Shown piece by piece: positions 1-10,273 of a DNA stretch of 10,273 nt (position 1 is its first letter; every line of letters starts with the position of its first letter). Below the pieces are notes generated by a model. The model was not told the DNA's origin. It saw only the letters and a program-made list of their open reading frames with translations, and ran no database searches. The translations under genes and the position numbers were made by a program. The DNA is taken from IMG/VR virus record IMGVR_UViG_2617270966_000009, one strand, 5' to 3'. Source of the stretch: a virus. Lineage: Duplodnaviria > Heunggongvirae > Uroviricota > Caudoviricetes.

Positions 1-1254
1 ATGCCAAAACTCACAGACATGCAGATCCGCGCATGGATAAAGGCCGGGGAGCGATTCGAGGGACGCTCTGACGGTAACGGGCTTTATCTTTCATACCGCG
101 AAAACTACCAGACCCCCGTCTGGCGATTCCGCTATAAATTCGCAGGGAAACCCCGCGCCATGCTGATTGGCTCATATGCCGAGCTATCACTATCAAAGGC
201 CAGAGAGACAGCCAAAGAGCTATCGGCTCGCGTTGCGCTGGGCTATGACGTTGCAGGAGAGAAGCAGAAGCGCAAAACCGAAGCACTGGCGAAGATGGAA
301 GCAGAGAAGAACGCTATGCGCGTTTCAGAGCTTGCCGCTGAATACTTTGAGCGTCAGATCCTCCCGCGCTGGAAGCACCCCGATATACTCCGCCGCCGTA
401 TCGACAAAGATATAAACCCATGCATTGGCAGCATGAAGGTGGAGGACGTGAAGCCGCGCCATATCGACGACATGCTGAAAAGTATTGTTGACCGTGGAGC
501 GCCGACCATAGCAACGGACGTTCTGCGCTGGACACGCCGCATATTTGACTACGGCATTAAGCGGCACGCACTGGAGATTAACCCGTGTTCAGCCTTTGAG
601 GTGGCAGACGCCGGAGGGAAAGAAGTTTCCCGCGACCGCTGGTTAACACGTGGCGAACTAATCCGACTGTTTCAGTCTATGCGCACGGCTAAGGGATTCA
701 GCCGTCAGAACGAAATCACGTTCAAATTACTGTTAGCGTTATGCGTCCGCAAAATGGAGTTATGCGCCGCCCGCTGGGAGGAGTTCGATTTTGATAAAGC
801 CGTATGGCATTTACCAGAGGAACGCAGCAAAAACGGCGACGCTATAGACATCCCATTAGCACCGCCAGCCGTCGAATGGCTGAGAGAGCTTAAAACGTTC
901 TCATGCAACAGCGCATGGGTGCTTCCAGCCAGGAAGATGCAAAACAGAATGATCCCACATATTCAGGAAAGCACTTTACCCGTAGCACTGGCTAAGGTTC
1001 GCGCTGAAATGCCTGATGTGCCTAATTTCACGATTCACGACTTCCGACGCACCGCACGTACTCATTTAGCAGCGCTGGGCGTTGATCCGGTAGTCGCAGA
1101 AAGATGCCTTAATCACAAAATTAAAGGCGTGGAAGGTATCTATAACCGTCACCAGTATTTTGATGAGCGTAAAGCGGCGCTGGCGCAGTGGTGTGATTTG
1201 CTGGTGGCACTGGAAAGCGGAAAAGACTACAACGTAACGCCAATCAGAGCATGA
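1..1254 (+). CDS. int: Tyrosine-type site-specific integrase, phage P4 / CP4-57 family
   Basis: 417-aa ORF. N-terminus (KLTD.QIRAWIKAG...GLYL...WRFRYKF.GK.....GSY..LSL..AR) matches the arm-binding N-terminal domain pattern of P4-like integrases as I recall it. C-terminus carries the catalytic signature HDFRRT ... LNHK ... GIYNRHQY (R-H-R-Y tyrosine recombinase core). ATG at position 1, so the att site and any tRNA target lie upstream, outside the window. Confidence 0.9.
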   Translation: MPKLTDMQIRAWIKAGERFEGRSDGNGLYLSYRENYQTPVWRFRYKFAGKPRAMLIGSYAELSLSKARETAKELSARVALGYDVAGEKQKRKTEALAKMEAEKNAMRVSELAAEYFERQILPRWKHPDILRRRIDKDINPCIGSMKVEDVKPRHIDDMLKSIVDRGAPTIATDVLRWTRRIFDYGIKRHALEINPCSAFEVADAGGKEVSRDRWLTRGELIRLFQSMRTAKGFSRQNEITFKLLLALCVRKMELCAARWEEFDFDKAVWHLPEERSKNGDAIDIPLAPPAVEWLRELKTFSCNSAWVLPARKMQNRMIPHIQESTLPVALAKVRAEMPDVPNFTIHDFRRTARTHLAALGVDPVVAERCLNHKIKGVEGIYNRHQYFDERKAALAQWCDLLVALESGKDYNVTPIRA

Positions 1255-1272
1255 TGAGAGGAAAGATTCATA

Positions 1273-2223
1273 ATGAAATTACCTGCGCATAAATATTATT
1301 CTTTGGATAAAGCAGCCAAACTGGCCGGATGTGAAGTATCCGATTTAATACACTATGCAGCAATTGGGGTTTTAGAAATATGTATAAAAATTCCACCTAT
1401 TGAATTGTTTTACCATTACCCCAAAAATGAAGATGCCGACCCAGAATTACTTAAAGTTGAAACAGATAGTATTTTTCATATAGATACAAAAGCAGCACAT
1501 GAGAATTATCTTCTTAATCTGAGCAATGAGGCAGATAATCTCGAATCATATGGCTTATCACCGCTTGATTATAAAAATAGCGATAACCATATGTATTTTA
1601 TGAGGTTTTCATACAAATCAGAACATTTCTCAGTTATAGAGCGATACAATGTTGGGAAGGATGAAAGAGATATCGAAAGATGGAACGGTCTATTAGCAAT
1701 TCCGTCTGCGTTCATAGATAACGATGAGCGGGAGCTATCAGAATGGGATGATTGGGAGATCTCCGTATGCGAACTGACGCCTCCGAGATGTGACGAGTTT
1801 AGCAAATCGAATAATTATGAAATCGGAGCTTTTTATATTGACGGCTGGTATGAAATAAGCCGAAATAAAATGTATATAACTGACTATGAATACAATCTTC
1901 TTATAAATGGAGGAAAATATATTTATGACAGACCCATGCACAAACCACCCGCAAACAAGTTATCCAATGATATAAATACGCTAAAAGTTAATAAACGTGC
2001 CGAACGGTACGCAGTCAATAGGGAGAAACTATTAAAATCTGCAATTTATATACTTAGTAAGTATCCAAATGAATGCAGGGGAGTAAGGAAAGAAATAAGC
2101 CCTGAGAAGTGGCGTGACTGTCTTGTTCGTCATTTAGACGAAGTTCCACCACTTATGATAACTAATGAAGATGTAATTCTTAAACAGCTGCGATCTGCGG
2201 CAAATGGCAAAGTGGATAGTTAA
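1273..2223 (+). CDS. Hypothetical protein, AT-rich orphan gene with putative N-terminal HTH-like segment; function unknown
   Basis: 316-aa ORF starting 19 nt after the int stop, with GAGAGG upstream of the ATG. Composition is clearly more AT-rich than its neighbours (hand count about 38% GC in the first 60 nt versus about 55% at the start of int). N-terminus (YSLDKAAKLAGCEVSDLIHYAAIG) resembles an excisionase/MerR-type helix-turn-helix; the rest is rich in Y/N/K/E/D with no motif I recognise. Followed by a hairpin plus T-run at 2234-2261. Confidence 0.75.
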   Translation: MKLPAHKYYSLDKAAKLAGCEVSDLIHYAAIGVLEICIKIPPIELFYHYPKNEDADPELLKVETDSIFHIDTKAAHENYLLNLSNEADNLESYGLSPLDYKNSDNHMYFMRFSYKSEHFSVIERYNVGKDERDIERWNGLLAIPSAFIDNDERELSEWDDWEISVCELTPPRCDEFSKSNNYEIGAFYIDGWYEISRNKMYITDYEYNLLINGGKYIYDRPMHKPPANKLSNDINTLKVNKRAERYAVNREKLLKSAIYILSKYPNECRGVRKEISPEKWRDCLVRHLDEVPPLMITNEDVILKQLRSAANGKVDS

Positions 2224-2233
2224 CTTGCTATAG

Positions 2234-2261
2234 AGGTACTGCAAAATTACAGTACCTTTTC
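2234..2261 (+). terminator. Putative rho-independent terminator after the AT-rich gene
   Basis: Perfect 8-bp inverted repeat AGGTACTG (2234-2241) / CAGTACCT (2250-2257) with an 8-nt loop, followed by TTTT. The stem is AT-rich, so moderate strength. Confidence 0.5.
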
Positions 2262-2329
2262 ATTGTATATCTATACAGCTAGATTTCTCGTAACGAAGCA
2301 ACAACTACCGCTAAGAGGTTACGGGAATC

Positions 2330-2533
2330 ATGAACATCGACACTATCCCTACAAAAGGCTATATCAGACGCTTCCGCCTTGCTGAATTGCTGGGCGTTAG
2401 TGTTTCAACCATTGATCGCAAAGTTCGCAGCGGCTCGCTACCGCGCCCGGTAAAGCTGGGGGAGAAGATTACCGCCTTTGATGCGGTAGAGATTAATAAC
2501 TGGCTGGCGGAGCGCCGGGGAAAGGTGGCGTAA
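2330..2533 (+). CDS. alpA: AlpA-family phage transcriptional regulator (HTH_17-type)
   Basis: 67-aa ORF with RBS AAGAGG upstream. LAELLGVSVSTIDRKVRSGSLPRPVKLGEK...AFDAVEINNWLAER matches the AlpA/excisionase-like HTH pattern (ligand-free HTH followed by a conserved W). Position after int is the canonical AlpA location in PICIs and CP4-57-like islands. Confidence 0.85.
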   Translation: MNIDTIPTKGYIRRFRLAELLGVSVSTIDRKVRSGSLPRPVKLGEKITAFDAVEINNWLAERRGKVA

Positions 2534-2967
2534 TGAAAAAGAAAAACCGCCCCGTACAGCAGGCGGCTAACTCAGATATTCGCACGTCTGATATTACGCC
2601 GACCACCAGCCCGGTACAAGTACCTAAGCGAACCCCAAAGAAACACCGCGCCCGCGTCTATATGCTGCGTACTGGCGTAGAGGGATGGACAGAAAACGAC
2701 ATTCTGCGATATTGCCGCCTTTCATCTGGAAGGAACTACGCCAGCGAGTTAGAGCGCAGGCTTGATATTCAGCTTGAGCGTATAGACGAAAAGAACCCCG
2801 ACGGGATAGGGTCACATTTACGCTATCGCTTTACCGGGCGCGGTGACGTTCTAAAAGTTATTCGGCTTGTGAACCATAACGCCGACGCTGGCGGCTATCA
2901 GGGACTTTCTCAGCCTGAAATTGCCGACATTCTCAACCTATACCCGGACAATCTCACCGCCGCCTAA
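2533..2967 (+). CDS. Hypothetical protein with basic, low-complexity N-terminus
   Basis: 144-aa ORF whose ATG overlaps the alpA stop (TAATG), indicating translational coupling. N-terminal 40 residues are rich in K/R/P/T. No recognisable catalytic motif. Confidence 0.65.
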   Translation: MKKKNRPVQQAANSDIRTSDITPTTSPVQVPKRTPKKHRARVYMLRTGVEGWTENDILRYCRLSSGRNYASELERRLDIQLERIDEKNPDGIGSHLRYRFTGRGDVLKVIRLVNHNADAGGYQGLSQPEIADILNLYPDNLTAA

Positions 2968-2979
2968 CGGAGACTGAAA

Positions 2980-3813
2980 ATGAACATCGAAAAAAGCAGA
3001 TTAATTTCTGAGGCCGCCCCTCATCTGAACGCCTATCAGGGCACAATTAACGGTAATGAATTTGCCGCAATTGTCCCGGTTATTCCTGGTCATATCGGTG
3101 GGCGTGAAACCAATATTGTTAGCGCAAAAGCGTTACACAAAGCGTTGGGCGTGGGAAAAGACTTCTCTACATGGATCACTGATCGCATCTCTGAATATGA
3201 CTTCACCATTGGGCACGATTACTCAGTCCATAAAACAATTTCCCCAAATTTGGGGAAAAGCCCGAATGGCGCGGCTTACAGCAAGATTAAGCAGTCTGGC
3301 AGACCCGGCAAAGACTATCTGTTAAGTGTCGGAATGGCGAAAGAACTGGCAATGATCGAACGCAATGATCAGGGTCGCGCTATCCGCCGTTATTTCATCC
3401 AGTGCGAGGAAGAATTACAGCGTAGCGTGCCTGAAATCGCCGCCCGCTATCGTCGCCAGCTAAAAGCCCGTATCAGTGCCGCAAACAACTTTAAGCCAAT
3501 GTGCGATGCGCTGAATATGGCCCGTGCCGAGATGGGTAAAGCGACGCAGCAGCGCCACTACAGCAACGAGAGCAACATGATCGCCCGTATCGTGCTGGGT
3601 GGCATGACGGCGAAGCAGTGGGCGCAGGCAAATGGCATTACTGGCGAACCACGGGACAGCATGAACGCAGCACAGCTTGAACACCTCGCCTATCTCGAAA
3701 GCACCAATATCACGTTAATTGATATGGGCATGGAATATGAGCAGCGCAAAGGAGAACTCCCCCGCCTGTCGCAACGCTGGCTCGCTAAACGTCTGGAGGT
3801 AAACCATGCGTAA
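2980..3813 (+). CDS. Phage antirepressor / regulatory protein-like (Bro-N / KilA-N / Rha / AntA-type N-terminal domain)
   Basis: 277-aa ORF with RBS GGAGA 7 nt upstream. N-terminal region (NEFAAIVPVIPGHIGG...NIVSAKALHKALGVGKDFSTWITDRI...DYLLSVGMAKELAMIERNDQGRAIRRYFIQCEEEL) has the layout of phage antirepressor-type DNA-binding domains. The exact family cannot be resolved by eye. Confidence 0.7.
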   Translation: MNIEKSRLISEAAPHLNAYQGTINGNEFAAIVPVIPGHIGGRETNIVSAKALHKALGVGKDFSTWITDRISEYDFTIGHDYSVHKTISPNLGKSPNGAAYSKIKQSGRPGKDYLLSVGMAKELAMIERNDQGRAIRRYFIQCEEELQRSVPEIAARYRRQLKARISAANNFKPMCDALNMARAEMGKATQQRHYSNESNMIARIVLGGMTAKQWAQANGITGEPRDSMNAAQLEHLAYLESTNITLIDMGMEYEQRKGELPRLSQRWLAKRLEVNHA

Positions 3814-3988
3814 CCATAATCCGATGCCGGGAAGCCGTTACAAGGACAGTCACGGGGCTGTAGTGACCGTACAGCGCGTCGAGCATAACCGAGTGACCTT
3901 TTACCGCGAGGGCTATCAGTCGCCATGTGTTCAGCCTTTGGAGAGATTCGTTAATGAGTTCGTGGAGGTGCGCCGTGATACTGAATGA
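3806..3988 (+). CDS. Small hypothetical protein (60 aa)
   Basis: ATG at 3806 overlaps the stop of the upstream gene (ATGcgTAA) and is preceded by GGAGGT, suggesting translational coupling. Resembles small conserved prophage proteins, but I cannot name the family with confidence. Confidence 0.5.
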   Translation: MRNHNPMPGSRYKDSHGAVVTVQRVEHNRVTFYREGYQSPCVQPLERFVNEFVEVRRDTE

Positions 3989-4160
3989 ACCTGCCGCCCA
4001 GAAAGAAGCCTTTAATCTGGCTAGCCTGTTAACAAATGTTAACCCTTACAACCTTATAAAACCAAAGGTCGCGAACGGCTGCCTGTTATCAATTGTTATG
4101 GTTAATGACTTAGCAAAACTTAGCCTGAACCTCACAAAACCTGACATCCACGCACGGGGA
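3989..4160 (+). promoter_or_regulatory. Putative promoter/operator region for the downstream replication operon
   Basis: GTTAACAAATGTTAAC at 4028-4043 is two palindromic GTTAAC hexamers spaced exactly 10 bp centre to centre. It is followed by CCTTACAACCTTA and a TATAAA box (4055-4060). No convincing sigma70 -35 at canonical spacing, which would fit an activator-dependent promoter. The call is weak because a long open + frame runs through this region. Confidence 0.3.
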
Positions 4161-4694
4161 ATGACGACAAATGATGACATTTTAAACCAAGAAATAATCA
4201 CCTCTAAAAAGCTGATTGTGGGGAATAAATTCCCCCTGCTGGCTGGTGGTATGAACTGGATTGCTACCGTTGTGAACCGTTCCACATCGACTTTCGCGAC
4301 AAATACGCGTGCGCTGGAAGATTTATTAGGGGTCGTTACGCGAGAAGGTGAGTATTCGGAGTCCATAAAAAAGGGCTTGCCGACTATCGCCAACCCGGTT
4401 TATGGTTATAGCGCACCAGCAAAATCTGGTGCCGGGATTGGCGTCCTGATAATGTTACAGGCGACACATGACGCGCCGAGCGTCTTTTTTTGTGTCCTCG
4501 CATCTGCACACCTCTTTCCCAGCGATATGGCTATAGCCCATATTGCTCAAAAAGTAATGGTGGGCTGGATGGGGGCGGAGCGATCCGCGCCGGTTTCCTG
4601 TAACGCCGGTTACGCCAACCCTGTTCAGCTCACCACCAGTGAAATTGGCGTTTCCGGTGGTGGGAATAAATCCCAGTTACAGGAGGCTGCCATA

Positions 4695-4886
4695 ATGGCT
4701 ACTACCCCTACCCAAAAACCGCAATTTATCTGGATTATCGCAGCAGTTCGCCGCGATATGCCGACAATTACCGCCAAAATTCACCATATCGCCGCAGAGA
4801 CTGAGCAGGAAGCCCGCCGCATTCTGGCGCGGGATCACGTTTGCTTTTTTGCCGGACGTATTCGCACAGGGGGCGCACATGCTTAA
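4695..4886 (+). CDS. Small satellite protein, possibly Icd-like (host cell division inhibitor-like); 5' boundary uncertain
   Basis: Strong AGGAGG 7 nt upstream of ATG 4695 (MATTPTQKPQFIWIIAAVRRDMP...). The same frame is open back to 3927 with in-frame ATGs at 4161, 4527 and 4557, so the true product may be longer or there may be two in-frame products. The upstream segment MVGWMGAERSAPVSCNAGYANPV resembles what I recall of Ash-family proteins; this is unverified. Confidence 0.5.
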   Translation: MATTPTQKPQFIWIIAAVRRDMPTITAKIHHIAAETEQEARRILARDHVCFFAGRIRTGGAHA

Positions 4887-5058
4887 TTACTTCCGTGTTG
4901 CAGGATGCGCCACCGCCCGGAGCGGCGAATTAGTCGAGTTCGTTTATATCGTTGACGCCCGCAGCGCGATCAGCGCCAAAGCTGAGGCGCTAAATCAGGC
5001 CAGAAATGAACGCCTTTCCCACATCCAGATTACCCGCATTCGTGAGGTGGCAGCATGA
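4879..5058 (+). CDS. Small hypothetical protein (about 59 aa)
   Basis: ATG at 4879 preceded by AGGGGG and overlapping the stop of the upstream ORF (ATGCTTAA). The six-frame track start at 4849 lacks an RBS. Part of a chain of coupled small genes upstream of the primase. Confidence 0.5.
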   Translation: MLNYFRVAGCATARSGELVEFVYIVDARSAISAKAEALNQARNERLSHIQITRIREVAA

Positions 5059-5318
5059 ACATAACTACCATCTACCGCCACCCGGCAGAGCTGGAAGCCG
5101 AAGCGATGCTATCTCGCAAAGAATCATACCCGGATGATTTTACGCTGGCAGACCGAACAGCAGAACGCATGACCCGCGCCCGCAATGGGCTGGCTCACGT
5201 TATGACCGATTTATTACCACTCCTCGAAGTTGAGCAAGCAGCCATCGCGTATTGCTGGCTGAGTAAAGTCCTGACGATTGTCGATATAGCCAGAATTGAT
5301 GCGGAGGGCAGCGCATGA
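5055..5318 (+). CDS. Small hypothetical protein (87 aa)
   Basis: ATGA start/stop overlap with the upstream gene at 5055-5058. Acidic protein with no recognisable motif. Confidence 0.55.
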   Translation: MNITTIYRHPAELEAEAMLSRKESYPDDFTLADRTAERMTRARNGLAHVMTDLLPLLEVEQAAIAYCWLSKVLTIVDIARIDAEGSA

Positions 5319-5372
5319 GCAACGCACCGACCATTAAATCGGGAAATGCCGCTGGCGCACTGAGGGGGCGAC

Positions 5373-5714
5373 ATGATTACTAAAAATTTCCGACTGAATG
5401 CGCTGGCGAATAAGTATGCGTCGGCACTGTATAACCACATTACCTCCACCAGCGGCGGGGACTATTTCATGGTTGATGCGGACGGCCTCGCCGTCCGTGT
5501 GGAAATCGTCAATGGAGTAAAAGGCGTTCGCAGTCTGATCGATAGCTACACACTGGCAGCCATGAAAGTGTCCTACCCGCAGTGGGAAACCGTGGGGGTC
5601 GAGCTTCTTGAGCGTTGCGTCACTAATGACGGATTGACTGACGTCGGGCGTGAGATATGGCAAAGCATGGTTAAAGACATGGGCGCGACCGTGGCAGGAG
5701 GCAACCATGCGTAA
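5373..5714 (+). CDS. Hypothetical protein (113 aa), immediately upstream of and coupled to the primase
   Basis: ATG at 5373 with GAGGGGG RBS (5362-5368). Stop TAA at 5712-5714 overlaps the primase ATG at 5707 (ATGcgTAA). Confidence 0.6.
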   Translation: MITKNFRLNALANKYASALYNHITSTSGGDYFMVDADGLAVRVEIVNGVKGVRSLIDSYTLAAMKVSYPQWETVGVELLERCVTNDGLTDVGREIWQSMVKDMGATVAGGNHA

Positions 5715-8148
5715 TATCGACCTTATCCGCGAAGTGACCAGTGCCGCCGCCGGGCGCTGGCCTTATGTGCTGGCTGGATTGTCTATCGACGTGCCTGATT
5801 CATCGCGCCGCCATTCTCCATGCCCTGCATGTGGTGGAAAAGACCGTTTCAGATTCGACGACAACGGGCGCGGTAGCTTTATCTGCAATCAGTGTGGCGC
5901 TGGTGACGGTTTAGACCTGATTAAGAAGGTGAACAACTGCGACACTACGGAGGCGGCACAGCTTGCCGCTGATGTGCTGGGTATTGATTACCGGGCAGCG
6001 GAAACCGCCCCGGTGGCAGCGAGCCATAGAAGAGAGCAACTGGAAGCTGACCGCCAGCAGCGTGAGCAGGAGCGCCAGAAACAGGCAGCAGAGGATGCAG
6101 AGCAGCGAAGGGCTACGTTTGCCCGTCTGTATGCCGGAATGCGCCAGAGTGCCACACAGGGAGAATCTGATTACCTGCAATCAAAAGGGCTGACCGGGTT
6201 TAACTATCCGGTTATGCCGGATGGTTCGTTATTGCTGGAGCTGGTGGACGAATCCGGCGCAGTGGCAGCAGCGCAAACCATTACACCGCAGGGAGAGAAG
6301 CGACTCCTGACAGGTTCAGCAAAGCGCGGGGCATATCACGCCGTAAACGCACCAGAACAGCCGCAGAGCGTATTAATTGCCGAGGGGCTGGCTACGGCCC
6401 TGTCCGTTCACCTGATGCGCCCGGACGCGCTTACAGTGGCGGCAATTGACGCCGGGAACCTGATCCACGTTGCCAGAGTAATGCGCCGGGAACACCCGCA
6501 GTCGCAAATTATCATTGCCGCAGATAACGACCACCAGCAGGACGAACAGGCGAACACGGGCAAAGATGCCGCAGAGAAAGCCGCCTTATCCGTGGCTGGC
6601 TGGGTGGCGCTGCCGCCGACAGACTACAAAGCCGACTGGGACGACTACCGCCAGCAAAACGGGCTGGAAGTCGCTACGGCTGCGTTTAACGATTCGATGT
6701 ACCAGATTCAGGGGGAAGCCGTGAAACCACAACTACAGGCCATTGTGGGCGGTAAATCCCGCCGTAAAGCCGAAGTCGGAGATATTGCACAAATGGCAGC
6801 CAGCCAGAAAGCGCGGTTGCTTTCATCTCGCTGGGATATGTTGGCGGTCAACCCTGATAGTGGCGCTGTTTACTGCTACGAATCTGGCGTATGGGTGAAG
6901 CTACCAGACAGCGAATTAGAAAGGGTTATGGTGGCAATTTTCGACGAGCACGAAGCCCACTACACCGAAAAAGGGATTAAATCGGTTGTCGCAACCATGA
7001 AGCTGCAAATACCGGTAATTGGTGAGCGGAGCGGGGATCTGATTGGTTTTGATAACGGCGTTTATGACCTCGCTACGCAGACGTTTTCCGCCCATTCGCC
7101 GGGTAACTGGCTGATGAACCACAATGGGATCACCTACACCCCGCCAGCGCTGGGGGAAAATATTACCACCAGCGCCCCCAATTTTACCCGTTGGCTGAAT
7201 CATGCAACGGCTGGCGACCATCATAAGGCCGAGCGTATCAAAGCAGCCTTGTTTATGGTGCTGGCGAAGCGTCACGACTGGCAGCTATTCATTGAGATAA
7301 CTGGCGAGGGCGGCAGTGGGAAATCCGTATTCAGCAGCATAGCAACCACGCTGGCAGGTGAACACAACACCGCCAGCGGTAGCATGATGACGCTGGACAC
7401 CGCACGGGGACGGGCGCAGTTCGTAGGAAAAAGCCTGATTATTATGCCTGACCAGACCCGCTATGTTGGAGAGGGTGCGGGGATTAAAGCCATTACGGGC
7501 GGCGATCCGGTAGAGATTGATGGGAAATATGAAAAGCAGTTCACAACCGTGATAAATGCCGTTGTTATGGCAACCAATAACGAGCCGATGACATTCACGG
7601 AGCGAAACGGGGGCATTGCCCGCCGCCGCGTGATATTCCCGTTTAATAACCCGGTATCAGACGCAGACAAAGACCCGGATTTAACCGCAAAAATCAGGCG
7701 AGAAATCCCGGTGATTATCCGCCACCTGCTAACCACCTTTGCCGACCAGAACAAAGCAAAGGCACTATTACTAGAGCAGCGCGATTCGCAGGAGGCGCTA
7801 GAGGTTAAACGCGGCACGGATCCGGTTGTCGATATGTGTGCGGCGCTTTTTTTCATGAACGAACCCAAAGGCATGATGATGGGCGGAGGTACATGGGCAG
7901 GCCAGCCAGAGCCGAGGACGTATCTTTATCATCTTTATCTGGCGTTTATGGAGTATCACGGTTTGGGTAAACCGCTTTCCGTCAATAAGTTTTCACGCGC
8001 CATAAAATCAGCAGCAAAAGAGTACCGAGCCAGCTACCTGACGAGAAGCATTAACGGCAGAGCGCAAACCAACGTTGGCTATAACGAGAAGGCTGAGGAG
8101 TTCATGCCACGCGCTTACGGTGTGGAGAGCGGGCAGAGTGATGATTGA
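5707..8148 (+). CDS. Replication primase-helicase: primase Zn-ribbon + Toprim + phage/plasmid primase P4-family / D5-like SF3 NTPase
   Basis: Preferred start ATG 5707 with CAGGAGG 5 nt upstream; the track's longer ORF begins at a GTG at 5650 without an RBS. Zn-ribbon CPACGG...CNQCG at 5821-5895. Acidic Toprim-like IIIAADNDHQQDE with DND at 6523-6531. Walker A GEGGSGKS at 7303-7326. Size (813 aa) and domain order match P4 alpha-like and PICI pri-rep proteins. Confidence 0.9.
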   Translation: MRNIDLIREVTSAAAGRWPYVLAGLSIDVPDSSRRHSPCPACGGKDRFRFDDNGRGSFICNQCGAGDGLDLIKKVNNCDTTEAAQLAADVLGIDYRAAETAPVAASHRREQLEADRQQREQERQKQAAEDAEQRRATFARLYAGMRQSATQGESDYLQSKGLTGFNYPVMPDGSLLLELVDESGAVAAAQTITPQGEKRLLTGSAKRGAYHAVNAPEQPQSVLIAEGLATALSVHLMRPDALTVAAIDAGNLIHVARVMRREHPQSQIIIAADNDHQQDEQANTGKDAAEKAALSVAGWVALPPTDYKADWDDYRQQNGLEVATAAFNDSMYQIQGEAVKPQLQAIVGGKSRRKAEVGDIAQMAASQKARLLSSRWDMLAVNPDSGAVYCYESGVWVKLPDSELERVMVAIFDEHEAHYTEKGIKSVVATMKLQIPVIGERSGDLIGFDNGVYDLATQTFSAHSPGNWLMNHNGITYTPPALGENITTSAPNFTRWLNHATAGDHHKAERIKAALFMVLAKRHDWQLFIEITGEGGSGKSVFSSIATTLAGEHNTASGSMMTLDTARGRAQFVGKSLIIMPDQTRYVGEGAGIKAITGGDPVEIDGKYEKQFTTVINAVVMATNNEPMTFTERNGGIARRRVIFPFNNPVSDADKDPDLTAKIRREIPVIIRHLLTTFADQNKAKALLLEQRDSQEALEVKRGTDPVVDMCAALFFMNEPKGMMMGGGTWAGQPEPRTYLYHLYLAFMEYHGLGKPLSVNKFSRAIKSAAKEYRASYLTRSINGRAQTNVGYNEKAEEFMPRAYGVESGQSDD

Positions 8149-8582: not shown

Positions 8583-8613
8583 ACTGTTGTTTTATACAGT
8601 TCTAAGGGGCGTT

Positions 8614-8787
8614 ATGGCTATTTCAGTAAAGCCGGTATTGATAAGTGAGAAGCAAATGGAAGCGATAAAGAAAATTCAGGAGGAGCAGCGTAAAAAATCA
8701 GAGGTAGGAGTTGCGCCAACGATCCACGAAATTGCTCGGGGATTAATGGATAAGGCGCTGGCCTCACTGGCAAGCGAGGGCGCGTAA
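8614..8787 (+). CDS. Small protein (57 aa), possible ribbon-helix-helix-type DNA-binding protein / antitoxin-like
   Basis: ATG at 8614 with AAGGGG RBS; the track's longer ORF begins at a TTG at 8587. Predicted short N-terminal strand (SVKPVLISEKQ) followed by helical segments. Stop TAA overlaps the ATG of the next gene (TAATG at 8785-8789). The fold assignment is an inference, not a motif match. Confidence 0.5.
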   Translation: MAISVKPVLISEKQMEAIKKIQEEQRKKSEVGVAPTIHEIARGLMDKALASLASEGA

Positions 8788-9458
8788 TGGGCGCCATTCA
8801 CCAGATATATGAGCATGAAATGTTCTATAACTGGATAGGTGATGGTAAACGATGTGTAGCATTCCACGAAGCGGGACATGCAGTAGCTGCATGGCTTATT
8901 CGCTTAGATATACAGGTTATCGCCGTTATGGATGAATACGGTTACGTTGCTGGCGAACATGTACATGAGGCCAAGTGTTTGGGCGTTGTTAAACACAGCA
9001 TAATTCACAGCCACGATCTCGGGCGTTTGCGGGATAGTAAATCTGGTGTAGTTGGGCAGAATGGTAAAGTTATCCCTTTCATACGTTACTATGCGGATGG
9101 TATAAAGCGCGATGCAAAAAAGGCCGCTTTTGTATCCCTCGCCGGACCAGTAAGCGAAGCCCTTTACGAAAACAACGATATTTTCAACAAAAAGTATTCG
9201 CTACCTCATCGCTATGACATGGCTAACGTAAATGACATGCTCGATTTAATCTGCGCTACAGATAAGCAAATTAACAGGGAGTTAATGCTTTCTAAACTCG
9301 TTGAAAAGACCAAAGCCCTCATGGCTCAATACTGGTATGAAGTAGAAAAAATAGCGCATTTGCTTGAACGGGATAGCATTGTGAATGGTCGAAATGTTAG
9401 CTCGTTAATTGGCATCAACGTCATAGACCGGGCAACGCCATTTTTGCTGGTGGAATAA
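8787..9458 (+). CDS. Standalone zinc metallopeptidase-like protein with HEAGH motif (FtsH/M41-like or ImmA-like active site)
   Basis: 223-aa ORF, translationally coupled to the upstream small gene. Contains VAFHEAGHAVAAWL (HEAGH encoded at 8865-8879), which closely resembles the FtsH peptidase M41 zinc-binding site; acidic residues downstream could supply the third ligand. No AAA+ ATPase domain is present. GC content is visibly lower than the replication genes. Confidence 0.7.
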   Translation: MGAIHQIYEHEMFYNWIGDGKRCVAFHEAGHAVAAWLIRLDIQVIAVMDEYGYVAGEHVHEAKCLGVVKHSIIHSHDLGRLRDSKSGVVGQNGKVIPFIRYYADGIKRDAKKAAFVSLAGPVSEALYENNDIFNKKYSLPHRYDMANVNDMLDLICATDKQINRELMLSKLVEKTKALMAQYWYEVEKIAHLLERDSIVNGRNVSSLIGINVIDRATPFLLVE

Positions 9459-9671
9459 CTCCCGACCAAACTCATTCGATGATTCATTTCTCCACGGGTA
9501 AGCTATGCCGGTAGACCTAACTCCGCAGTATTACCGGAATCAGCCAGGCTACAGGCACACAGGAGGCCACGCAACACAATCCGCGCCTGGATGGGAGTTA
9601 TATAATACCCCTGATGATTTTGACCAACGCCCACCATTCGACGATGAAACGCCATTCTGGGGGAGATAAAC

Positions 9672-9953
9672 ATGGTAAACGACAGTAAAGCCGAGGATCT
9701 GGAAGCAAAAGGGCTGTACCGACGCGCCGCAGCGCGATGGATGGAAGTCATGCTGTTATGCACCGAGGACGATGATCGGGAATGGATAAAGCGCCGCCGT
9801 GAAACGTGTCTTGAGAACGTGAAGCGCCCGCCCGTGAAGGCTGAGGACTTTGGCGACCTGCATAAAGCTGTTACCGAAACGCAACACCGCATGGGGATAG
9901 CGCAACCGAACGGTAACGCCTTCCGGTTAAATGGCGGCAATAGGCAAAGGTAG
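9672..9953 (+). CDS. PerC/Pch-like small transcriptional regulator (tentative)
   Basis: 93-aa ORF with GGGGGAG RBS. AEDLEAKGLYRRAAARWMEVM...REWIKRRRETC resembles the conserved core I recall from PerC-family (Pch) regulators encoded on prophage-like elements. Followed by a strong terminator. Confidence 0.55.
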   Translation: MVNDSKAEDLEAKGLYRRAAARWMEVMLLCTEDDDREWIKRRRETCLENVKRPPVKAEDFGDLHKAVTETQHRMGIAQPNGNAFRLNGGNRQR

Positions 9954-9965
9954 ACCACCAGTGGG

Positions 9966-10027
9966 GAGGGGCGGGGCAAATCCCTGCGGCCTGACGTCTT
10001 CCGGACTGCCCGCCCCATCGTTTTTTC
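9966..10027 (+). terminator. Rho-independent terminator
   Basis: GC-rich inverted repeat GGGGCGGGGCA (9968-9978) / TGCCCGCCCC (10007-10016), with inner pairing also possible, followed by TTTTTT at 10021-10026. Sits 13 nt after the PerC-like stop. Confidence 0.75.
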
Positions 10028-10087
10028 ATACCCGCGAAAAATGAAATTTAATCCGGGCGTGTTTCATCCTTCCAGAGGGTATGACGT

Positions 10088-10273
10088 ATGACACCACGCG
10101 AAATAGCCTTATTGACCATCGCCAAACTTGAGCACGGAGGCCACCAGCTTACACAGGCAGATCAACGGGAGATAGAACGCTCAGTTAATGCCGATATAGC
10201 CCGGCGCGACAGGTTCCGCGAAATGATGCGAGCACCTGCCTACCAGTGGAAGAAGCCAGCGCCGCGCAGGTAG
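10088..10273 (+). CDS. Small hypothetical protein (61 aa)
   Basis: ATG at 10088 with AGAGGG upstream; ORF closes with TAG at the very end of the window. Charged, helical-looking sequence with no recognisable motif. Confidence 0.4.
   Translation: MTPREIALLTIAKLEHGGHQLTQADQREIERSVNADIARRDRFREMMRAPAYQWKKPAPRR

Follow-up and report, generated by a model that had tools for sequence, protein, structure and literature searches.

A PerC-family gene of the EcCIMP1_025 type beside a phage-derived cos region on an Escherichia coli satellite island

A small gene with a PerC-like signature, carried toward the 3′ end of a phage satellite, raises the question of whether such an element may act on the virulence regulation of its host and, if so, in which direction. 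The gene was examined within the whole stretch of viral DNA on which it lies (10,273 nt; IMG/VR record IMGVR_UViG_2617270966_000009), referred to here as the window. The reading we favor, held as a whole with somewhat better than even confidence, is that the gene encodes a PerC-family protein of the EcCIMP1_025 type which would regulate through contacts with other proteins, lower the expression of the LEE, be transcribed as part of an operon, and lie beside a cos site used in packaging.

Family membership and N-terminal domain

The gene, designated perC here (9672..9953, + strand; taken from a program-made ORF list), is an allele of EcCIMP1_025 and encodes a 93-aa product, MVNDSKAEDLEAKGLYRRAAARWMEVMLLCTEDDDREWIKRRRETCLENVKRPPVKAEDFGDLHKAVTETQHRMGIAQPNGNAFRLNGGNRQR. 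The PerC core named in the preliminary description of this DNA, LE.KGL.RRAA.RW, was found in the motif LEAKGLYRRAAARW, which extends from L10 to W23 (L10-E11-A-K13-G14-L15-Y-R17-R18-A19-A20-A-R22-W23). The HMM search proposed as a check bore out the identification: the protein matched Pfam PF06069 (PerC) at an E-value of 4.5e-30 and 104.2 bits, above the gathering score (cut-off 22.6), across profile positions 1-86 of 90. A match to PHROG 994 was also detected (E = 1.6e-36), and all but one of the 109 database homologues carry PF06069. When aligned with EPEC PerC, PchABC, and PchE, residues M1, D4, A7, L10, G14, R17, R18, A19, A20, R22, W23, R36, C46, G75, and R85 were found to be invariant, such that the N-terminal LE.KG.YRRAA.RW motif was accompanied by the family positions R36, C46, and G75. 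Membership in the PerC family is far above chance. The family call itself is not new, as the gene is 100% nucleotide-identical to a gene of E. coli PSS-13 that RefSeq already names 'PerC family transcriptional regulator' (WP_032236946.1). Moreover, perC genes on E. coli PICIs are already published, having been noted since 2018, and an orthologue has been tested on LEE1; the PerC finding as first given thus adds little to what is already known.

A TPR-like module of three helices, homologous to the ANR (AraC negative regulator) family, is proposed for the first ~50 residues. This domain corresponds to codons 6-51 (9687..9824, + strand), with helices at residues 5-13, 16-29, and 33-51, and the three helices were predicted at a pLDDT above 90. 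ANR proteins have three helices and seven highly conserved residues, A10, E14, A22, W26, A29, W43, and R47 (PMC4983702), six of which are matched in the gene product (A7, E11, A19, W23, W38, and R42), the exception being V26. The alignment with Rnr was free of gaps and paired E11, G14, Y16, A19, W23, R36, W38, R42, and C46. Mutation of A14, E18, A26, or W45 abolishes the activity of Aar (PMC4983702), and the equivalents of all four residues are present. When scored with the ANR model NF033650, the protein reached 28.5 bits (E = 1e-6, residues 6-50), a significant match although below the curated cut-off of 32; the corresponding scores were 31.1 for EcCIMP1_025, 18.2 for PerC, 13.6 for PchABC, and 17.9 for PchE. 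Some ANR similarity is found in all PerC proteins, the activators included. PerC, PchABC, and PchE have L, V, or Q at the position of W38, while within the clade of the present protein W38 is common yet not invariant. At 93 aa the protein is more than the three-helix module of under 10 kDa that makes up an ANR, as it includes a C-terminal region, H61-74 and MGIAQPNG.AFRL, which is conserved and has no counterpart in ANRs.

No DNA-binding fold was recognizable in the protein; a sequence search of the PDB returned chance matches to histone H2B alone (E = 0.32), and Foldseek against the PDB gave nothing significant. Because of the ANR signature in the N-terminal domain, antagonism of other proteins appears likelier than activation at a promoter. 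Regulation would most likely proceed through protein-protein contacts, with AraC/XylS-type activators and/or H-NS-family proteins (H-NS, Ler) as the predicted partners, as for Aar and Rnr.

Direction of the effect on the LEE

EcCIMP1_025 is the PerC-family gene of the PICI EcCIMP1 in E. coli MP1 (Pick, Stadel & Raivio, ISME J 2025, PMC11773190), and its product is identical to the protein encoded here at 85 of 93 residues (91%) over the full length. The two genes differ at 20 nucleotides, 16 of which are within the first 63 nt, indicating a mosaic 5′ end; five of the eight amino acid substitutions fall among residues 1-12, early in the N-terminal domain. EcCIMP1_025 was reported to silence a LEE1-lux reporter in C. 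rodentium in a dose-dependent manner, whereas EPEC perC activated it in the same assay; for this repression the gene had been over-expressed in a heterologous host, with pTrc99a as the vector (PMC11773190). The cross-talk with the LEE that had been suspected is therefore shown for an orthologue of 91% identity, though with a sign that is LEE1 repression and not Pch-like activation. If the allele acts like its orthologue, net LEE1/ler expression in a LEE-positive cell would be lowered rather than raised. The label 'PerC transcriptional activator' on genes of this kind probably has the wrong sign, since the ANR signature is present in the clade and the member that was tested represses the LEE. 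A satellite carried by commensals would therefore dampen virulence and not boost it.

The carriers of the gene were surveyed in a sample of complete E. coli genomes with either marker (perC or escN). Of the 21 perC-carrying entries, 18, PSS-13 among them, were without escN (about 85%). Three copies are present in ETEC H10407. Co-occurrence of the perC allele with the LEE was found in some genomes of the O111 lineage. A perC gene was seen in an O111:NM genome; on this basis, the three LEE-positive O111-type genomes are taken to have perC as their second match. As most carriers are without the LEE, the main role of the protein is likely to be a general modulation of the regulators of the host or of mobile elements.

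According to the preliminary description, the protein would be a Pch-like activator of ler/LEE1 and other genes of the Pch regulon, encoded by a self-contained moron. Such an activator is in line with the Pfam family and N-terminal motif common to PerC and Pch, with the statement of Fillol-Salom 2018 that some PICI-coded PerC homologues activate the LEE, and with the presence of the allele beside the LEE in the O111 lineage. Nonetheless, we regard it as highly improbable, as (i) the proven activators share only 36% (EPEC PerC) and 34% (PchABC) identity with the protein, which showed no close relationship to the LEE1-activating PerC/Pch subgroup ('class 1') and grouped with EcCIMP1_025 instead; (ii) the orthologue represses LEE1 where EPEC perC activates; (iii) few carriers have a LEE, and homologues are fixed in the islands of two hosts without it, Salmonella and Klebsiella; and (iv) the moron part finds neither a promoter of its own nor a 'terminator' distinct from a cos site, as described below.

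Island context and the sequence downstream of perC

The location of the gene on a satellite, as first described, was confirmed. The backbone (1..8148, + strand) was found by Pfam and PHROGs to include an integrase (1-1254), AlpA (2330-2533), AntA (2980-3813), DUF4222 (3806-3988), Ash (3927-4886), and a P4-family primase (5650-8148). This is the layout of a Gram-negative PICI, an element of about 10-20 kb free of phage structural and lysis genes, with int, alpA, and the primase module in order. An island 98.4% identical to it is annotated in RefSeq for PSS-13, where it lies between yicC and dinD and is without structural genes; the island of the window would thus be a PICI integrated at this site. 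The full PSS-13 island is approximately 12-13.4 kb long, and no convincing core was found for att direct repeats flanking it. PADLOC gave no defence matches among ten proteins of the window.

Two reading frames separate the primase from perC. The first (8787..9458, + strand) encodes a protein of 223 aa that has an HEAGH motif and weakly resembles M41/FtsH (PF01434, 21.2 bits, under the cut-off of 29.9), and it occupies the slot held by ProQ or SSB in related islands. The second is a putative 54-codon ORF (9505..9669, + strand; from the ORF list) that PGAP leaves unannotated and that had no match in Pfam, NCBIfam, PHROG, or PADLOC; no gene is annotated in the equivalent stretch of locus L001. 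Its stop codon is 2 nt before the perC ATG, and the Shine-Dalgarno sequence of perC, GGGGAG (9660-9665, + strand), is positioned 6 nt before the ATG and inside the end of this ORF. A sigma-70-like promoter site was not found in 9459-9671, a prediction that is weak as evidence. In Salmonella and Klebsiella the gene order primase, ProQ or SSB, PerC is conserved, with the PerC homologue directly after the primase module and overlapping the preceding ProQ or SSB gene. The absence of a promoter-like site in 9459-9671, the abutting start codon, the slot fixed across genera, and the nature of the downstream hairpin make an autonomous moron with its own strong terminator appear less likely. From this arrangement, perC would probably be transcribed as the last gene of the replication operon of the island.

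The same arrangement bears on an alternative in which the protein was selected for a role in the life cycle of the satellite, with any effect on the LEE incidental; it might, for example, lift H-NS silencing from the island or helper or direct it elsewhere, or modulate regulators of the helper or host after induction. This alternative overlaps in mechanism with the explanation we favor and differs from it in purpose. It draws on the position after the primase/SSB/ProQ module, where reading frames overlap or abut across genera, on the corresponding location of PchE in the capsid-forming island Sp7/OI-51, and on the lack of the LEE in most hosts. Relatives are likewise found in phages (N4-like, Fels-1, and P1-like) and on conjugative plasmids beside ProQ/FinO, and Rnr is encoded by a Mu-like prophage, in its early region. 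However, not all EcCIMP1-like elements have the PerC gene (PMC11773190), and it is therefore not essential to them. We consider this alternative possible but clearly the less likely of the two, and retain general modulation by a LEE-lowering protein as the preferred explanation.

Downstream of perC is a hairpin followed by a T-run (9965..10026, + strand), which had been described as the strong terminator of the gene. The GC-rich stem consists of the perfect arms GGGGCGGG (9968-9975) and CCCGCCCC (10009-10016), which are 33 nt apart and form eight perfect pairs, extendable to about 10; a T6 run (10021-10026) follows 4 nt later, and the structure starts 12 nt past the stop codon of perC. The hairpin and T-run thus exist as described; their strength as a terminator is doubtful, as the structure was not called by a terminator scan, showed no gain in folding energy over shuffled sequence (z = 0.38), and has the sequence of a phage cos site. 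Rfam gave no matches in 9300-10273.

The hairpin lies inside a phage-derived cos region (9963..10066) that matches, over its full length, the stretch between HNH and terS in SfI/SfII/SfV/SfIV/ST64B/phiP27-type phages. Window positions 9963-10061 are 94.9% identical to SfII over 99 nt, and the cos region is 80% identical to a region of phiP27 annotated as 'cos-site'. Prophages in roughly 1,000 E. coli genomes were also matched by the region, both of the inspected prophage copies being located between HNH and a P27-family terS; about three quarters of the 1,332 matching genomes match the cos segment only. Within the region is the presumed cosN decamer TGCCCGCCCC (10007..10016), which is the exact cohesive end of SfI, includes the 3′ arm of the claimed terminator stem, and occurs a single time in the window. 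The virion DNA termini of SfI lack exactly 5′-TGCCCGCCCC-3′ (PMC3636060), phiP27 annotates CGCCCGCCCC at the position aligned to the decamer, and the deposited linear genome of SfV opens at window position 9999|10000. When compared with the diverged EcCIMP1, the decamer and its 3′ flank were found to be conserved, while the 5′ arm and the loop vary.

These features can be weighed against a simpler view, in which the hairpin and T-run are a plain intrinsic terminator of perC and the likeness to phages is a scar of recombination with no part in packaging. The GC-rich stem, the closely following T6, and the short distance to the stop codon are what such a terminator would have. Against it are the 33 nt between the perfect arms, where an intrinsic terminator has a short loop of 3-8 nt with the U-run directly after the stem, the negative scan and folding results, a homology that spans the entire intergenic region of about 100 bp and so extends beyond the hairpin, the exact SfI decamer inside it, and the retention in EcCIMP1 of decamer and 3′ flank rather than of the 5′ arm and loop; in addition, the capture of a cos site is an established satellite strategy. 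This view is accordingly judged unlikely, although the hairpin could also terminate transcription that is not antiterminated. Instead, the complete cos region is most likely the packaging signal of the island, and it would mark phages of the SfI/SfV/phiP27 type as helpers. A general linkage of perC to cos was considered and rejected, as the cos region is absent from the PerC-bearing islands of Salmonella, Klebsiella, and Sakai.

Beyond the cos region, in the position held by terS in the phages, is a 61-aa gene (10088..10273, + strand; from the ORF list) whose product matched PHROG 7271 at E = 2e-6. The protein is identical in EcCIMP1, is annotated as WP_000188903.1 in both L001 and L002, and is a conserved feature close to the 3′ end in related islands, with tblastn matches in islands of Salmonella and Klebsiella. 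That it is a fragment of TerS was rejected, as no similarity to P27-family TerS was found.

Comparison with known systems

A broader reading, to which we give slightly less than even odds, is that islands of the EcCIMP1 type are packaged mainly by HNH-dependent cos phages of the SfI/SfV/phiP27 type, and that PerC/Pch and ANR proteins form one TPR-like superfamily. Roughly one complete E. coli genome in five has a prophage with this cos region. If the reading is correct, (i) packaging would proceed through a wholesale copy of a phage cos placed right after perC, with Kapi1 only a low-efficiency route; (ii) the packaged DNA would be multimeric, at approximately 3 × ~12-13 kb here or 2 × 19.96 kb for EcCIMP1, compared with phage genomes of 37-43 kb; and (iii) PerC/Pch and ANR would both be regulators borne on mobile elements, with the sign of the LEE effect tracking ANR-type residues such as W38. 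On sequence grounds, the cos copy predicts a class of helper phage that is unreported for EcCIMP1-type islands, and its identity offers a testable answer to the question of packaging and helper left open by the EcCIMP1 authors. GC-rich hairpins at the module junctions of satellites should be compared with phage cos regions before they are called terminators.

EcCIMP1 is likewise a PICI with int, AlpA, AntA, Ash, and primase, and shares with the present island the cos-like region, the 61-aa protein, and a pRiA4b ORF-3 family protein, both proteins being identical. Its integrase and site (tRNA-Thr next to proA, versus yicC-dinD here) are different, as are its size (19,963 bp versus about 12-13 kb) and the gene that precedes perC; moreover, 163 bp are inserted between perC and cos. 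The dependence of EcCIMP1 on Kapi1 as helper for excision, replication, and packaging has been shown; this P22-like phage, the sole demonstrated helper, does not have the present cos sequence. The Shigella phages SfI, SfV, SfII, and SfIV, by comparison, have the decamer with about 100 bp of flanks that are 90-95% identical.

The satellite EcCICFT073 likewise carries the cos of its helper, and SaPIbov5 is known to do so as well. EcCICFT073 has a mimic of a lambda/phi80-type cosN together with a different cosB and depends on Rpp, whereas here the whole intergenic region comes from an HK97-like, HNH-endonuclease-dependent type of phage, and the window showed no homologue of Rpp. In CFT073 itself, the region at 1.395-1.435 Mb is a lambdoid prophage.

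The regulators themselves compare as follows. PerC of EPEC, from the pMAR2/EAF plasmid, and PchA/B/C of EHEC prophages belong to the same Pfam family, have the invariant residues in common, and are likewise small regulators of LEE1 borne on mobile elements; Pch acts by the alteration of H-NS complexes. They differ from the present protein in that they activate LEE1, are without an equivalent of W38, have the lower ANR scores, and are encoded in the per operon or at the ends of lambdoid prophages rather than in a PICI replication operon; PchABC in addition have a 14-residue C-terminal extension. PchE of O157:H7, from the capsid-forming PICI Sp7/OI-51, served in its Sakai Sp7 form as the PICI-borne protein for comparison, and at 47% identity it is the closest of the named Pch proteins. 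Its gene, like the one examined here, follows the primase and SSB in a PICI; it differs in having no W38, in an island that encodes capsid and terminase genes, and in its reported targets, which are flagella, curli, and eae. PchE was reported to leave LEE1 unaffected and to lower adherence, and its steady-state level in uninduced cells was reported to be low. Finally, Aar of EAEC and Rnr of EPEC and C. rodentium, which repress virulence regulons, the LEE among them, through binding to AraC-family proteins, H-NS, and Ler, have the N-terminal three-helix domain in common with the present protein, and its predicted fold superposes at 0.7-0.8 Å onto ANR-family phage proteins; the ANR proteins are 4.4-9.5 kDa in size, and the protein described here adds to this domain a conserved PerC-type C-terminus of ~40 residues.

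The perC-family gene and its place in the satellite

The perC-family open reading frame (ORF) is located at 9672..9953 on the plus strand and encodes a 93-aa protein, with a Shine-Dalgarno sequence (GGGGAG, 9660-9665) positioned 6 nt ahead of its ATG. The family signature named in the preliminary description was found at residues 10-23 (LEAKGLYRRAAARW), and the protein scored 104.2 bits with the PerC profile PF06069 (gathering score 22.6, E = 4.5e-30, profile positions 1-86 of 90). The protein also matched PHROG 994 (E = 1.6e-36). Among 5.8 billion proteins searched, 109 homologues were detected, distributed over Escherichia, Salmonella, Klebsiella, Enterobacter, Citrobacter, and relatives; PF06069 was present in every one of them except one. 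The strength of these profile matches and the number of homologues place the PerC-family observation far beyond chance, and the initial identification was correct. The idea of a PerC-family gene on a satellite already has precedents in RefSeq and in publications, including (i) PerC variants encoded by some E. coli PICIs (Fillol-Salom et al. 2018, PMC6092414); and (ii) the PICI EcCIMP1 and its PerC-family gene EcCIMP1_025 (Pick, Stadel and Raivio 2025, PMC11773190). A putative ORF of 54 codons at 9505..9669 (+), with its stop codon 2 nt ahead of the perC ATG, had no family match and no PGAP annotation in the counterpart island.

The window is a PICI-type phage satellite. PHROG and Pfam matches identified a tyrosine integrase (1-1254), AlpA (2330-2533), AntA (2980-3813), Ash (3927-4886), and a P4-family primase (5650-8148), as well as a DUF4222 gene listed between AntA and Ash. 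The best match of the window was an island of ~12-13 kb in E. coli PSS-13, 98.4% identical and inserted between yicC and dinD, in which no structural or lysis genes were found; no att core repeat was identified and the exact ends of this island were not found. Its perC is 100% identical to that of the window at the nucleotide level and is named 'PerC family transcriptional regulator' in RefSeq (WP_032236946.1). Just upstream of int in the PSS-13 region (L001 7900-7990, outside the window), a TAGGTGTAC(A/C)C-like motif was observed four times at close spacing; these copies may be arm-type integrase or regulator binding sites. An AT-rich (36-43% GC) ORF of 316 aa between the integrase and alpA (1273-2223) was without match in Pfam, PHROG, and PADLOC; this slot holds a variable gene in related islands, making the ORF a candidate accessory or defence gene.

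No sigma-70-like site was detected between the preceding gene and perC. When related islands were compared, the gene order was primase, ProQ-like gene, and PerC in Salmonella, where the islands occupy the same chromosomal neighbourhood, adjoining yicG-ligB, and the PerC protein is present on at least 1000 contigs, and primase, SSB, and PerC in Klebsiella, with the PerC start overlapping the preceding gene in both. PchE of the Sakai Sp7 island occupies the same slot, after SSB. This conserved order indicates that the perC-family gene belongs to the replication operon at a fixed position, in genera without a LEE, and perC is probably expressed within the replication operon of the satellite. PerC-family genes repeatedly adjoin ProQ/FinO-like or SSB genes in the Salmonella and Klebsiella PICIs, Sakai Sp7, and an IncK2/Z conjugative plasmid (L009-L016, L008, L024), a pairing that hints at a common module for establishment or early functions. 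In the window, the ProQ/SSB slot is filled by a conserved 66-aa gene (8587-8787) followed by a gene whose 223-aa product contains an HEAGH motif (8787-9458); this product has weak, sub-threshold M41/FtsH-like similarity, and PADLOC returned nothing for either protein.

Relationship to PerC/Pch activators and ANR proteins

The window protein was compared with EPEC PerC (pMAR2), PchA/B/C (a 104-aa protein encoded by three gene copies in O157:H7 genomes), and PchE (Sakai island Sp7/OI-51), and was found to be 36%, 34%, and 47% identical, respectively; hence it is not close to the proven LEE1 activators. Its identity to EcCIMP1_025, the sole PerC-family gene product of EcCIMP1 in the E. coli MP1 region, is 91% (85/93). 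When examined in C. rodentium, EcCIMP1_025 silenced LEE1-lux in a dose-dependent manner, whereas EPEC perC activated it in the same assay, and the authors suggested that EcCIMP1_025 may in fact belong among the ANR-type repressors (PMC11773190). Of the proposal that the gene is a Pch-like activator of the LEE, the family assignment stands, while activation is made unlikely by this silencing orthologue and by the low identity to the activators. At the DNA level, 16 of the 20 nucleotide differences between the two perC genes fall within the first 63 nt, the upstream sequences are unrelated, and the downstream sequences are almost identical except for a 163-bp insertion in EcCIMP1. The clustered 5′ differences and unrelated upstream DNA place perC at a recombination boundary between modules, with the mosaic junction inside the gene (window 9672-9735 versus L002, the MP1 region, 9753-9816, minus strand). 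The insertion separates the perC stop of EcCIMP1 from its cos region (L002 ~9370-9532, minus strand) and is absent from the window.

The ANR profile (NCBIfam NF033650, curated cut-off 32 bits) detected some similarity in all PerC/Pch proteins compared, yet the scores set them apart: 31.1 bits for EcCIMP1_025 and 28.5 bits for the window protein, both below the cut-off, versus 18.2, 17.9, and 13.6 bits for EPEC PerC, PchE, and PchABC, respectively. Seven residues are highly conserved in ANRs (A10, E14, A22, W26, A29, W43, and R47), and mutation of the equivalents of four of these seven abolished the activity of Aar (PMC4983702). Rnr, the sequence of which was recovered from an E. coli genome via the published cloning primer, aligned without gaps to the profile of the window clade, with E11, G14, Y16, A19, W23, R36, W38, R42, and C46 paired. 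By this alignment the window protein has six of the seven ANR residues (A7, E11, A19, W23, W38, and R42), with V26 at the seventh position. The counterpart of W38, which is common though not invariant within the clade of the window protein, is L in PerC, V in PchABC, and Q in PchE. In E. coli M8, transposase genes and a DUF3164 gene precede rnr (L017 3001-3234) within the early region of a Mu-like prophage, so that mobile elements carry ANR genes just as they carry PerC genes.

An AlphaFold2 model built from 51 homologues (mean pLDDT 80.7) predicted helices at residues 5-13, 16-29, and 33-51, with pLDDT > 90 over residues 1-50, and a less confident fourth helix at 61-74. The first 48 residues superposed at 0.7-0.8 Å with ANR-family phage proteins of a viral structure library. 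Neither a helix-turn-helix nor any other DNA-binding fold was detected in the protein, and it had no sequence relative among solved structures. The modelled TPR-like module points to protein-protein contacts. ANRs act by binding AraC-family proteins, H-NS, and Ler (PMC4983702), and the protein-contact reading is also compatible with Pch, which acts by altering H-NS nucleoprotein complexes (PMC4764244). The window protein is most likely an ANR-like, protein-binding anti-regulator that would lower, not raise, LEE1 expression; in its native role it probably acts on general regulators, namely H-NS-family and AraC-family proteins, and not on the LEE.

Co-occurrence with the LEE

Co-occurrence was estimated by searching E. 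coli complete genomes with a chimera in which 700 nt of escN were joined to perC; 982 genomes matched, and 60 rows were sampled evenly. Forty-two rows were escN, with a second match in three, all with an O111-type LEE; the remaining 18 were perC-only, PSS-13 among them. This perC allele was also seen directly in an O111:NM genome. In this 60-row sample, roughly 85% of carriers are without a LEE, and the allele is present in a minority of LEE-positive strains. Cross-talk with the LEE in nature is possible, as some O111-type carriers do have the locus; however, with most carriers lacking it, such cross-talk cannot be the main reason for the existence of the gene. The gene had also been portrayed as a mobile regulatory moron that could affect host gene expression. 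Its satellite location and the possibility of cross-talk agree with this, but the fixed operon slot without a promoter-like site makes an autonomous unit less likely, and the LEE-free carriers argue against the LEE as its main purpose. ETEC H10407 (NC_017633.1) has three copies of this perC allele, and ETEC virulence is controlled by Rns/CfaD, AraC-type regulators already known as targets of ANRs.

The cos segment downstream of perC and candidate helpers

The hairpin after perC is real, with perfect arms at 9968-9975 and 10009-10016 and a T6 run at 10021-10026. It is less likely to be a strong terminator of the gene's own, as the arms are 33 nt apart, a terminator scan made no call, and the folding energy equals that of shuffled sequence. 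When perC plus this segment was compared with E. coli genomes, 1332 genomes matched, about three quarters of them through the last ~70 nt only, with no gene annotated beneath; the two such matches inspected were both between the HNH endonuclease gene and the P27-family small terminase gene of a prophage. Alignment revealed that ~9963-10066 covers the HNH-terS intergenic region over its whole length. In the phage collection, SfII matched at 94.9% over 99 nt, with further matches to SfI, SfIV, SfV, ST64B, and others; phiP27 matched at 80% in a region annotated 'cos-site', its annotated decamer CGCCCGCCCC aligning with 10007-10016. The two ends of the deposited linear SfV genome meet inside the match, at 9999|10000. 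Sequencing of SfI virion DNA termini gave the missing cohesive end as 5'-TGCCCGCCCC-3' (Sun et al. 2013, PMC3636060); the window contains this decamer a single time, at 10007-10016, where it forms the 3′ arm of the hairpin. The SfI decamer and the phage-wide matches together identify 9963-10066 as a copy of a helper-type cos region. Cleavage of HK97-like cos sites needs an HNH endonuclease. The hairpin may also stop non-antiterminated transcription, the two roles not being mutually exclusive. Beyond the cos lies a 61-aa gene (PHROG 7271, 10088-10273) that is identical in EcCIMP1, where a second copy (62% identical) lies upstream of perC (the two copies at L002 9055-9237 and 10057-10239); islands of Salmonella and Klebsiella encode homologues of 37-41% identity close to their 3′ ends (L009-L014 ~15160-16080). 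This protein was considered as a TerS and rejected, having no similarity to TerS.

By segment match, roughly 1000 complete E. coli genomes have prophages with this cos region, and EcCIMP1 has it as well. The EcCIMP1 study did not mention cos, called the packaging mechanism unresolved, and demonstrated the P22-like Lederbergvirus Kapi1 as a helper (PMC11773190); Kapi1, though in the phage collection, was not among the records matching the cos segment. Island sizes would fit multimer packaging, with 3 × ~12-13.4 kb here (island ends approximate) and 2 × 19,963 bp for EcCIMP1 compared with phage genomes of 37.1-42.6 kb (SfV to phiP27). Judged from sequence, the cos copy would predict SfI/SfV/phiP27-type helpers for the EcCIMP1-type island family. 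It is the only new element within 9672-10027 and is a known kind of satellite feature: carrying the cos of the helper is the established packaging strategy of EcCICFT073, and SaPIbov5 uses the same strategy.
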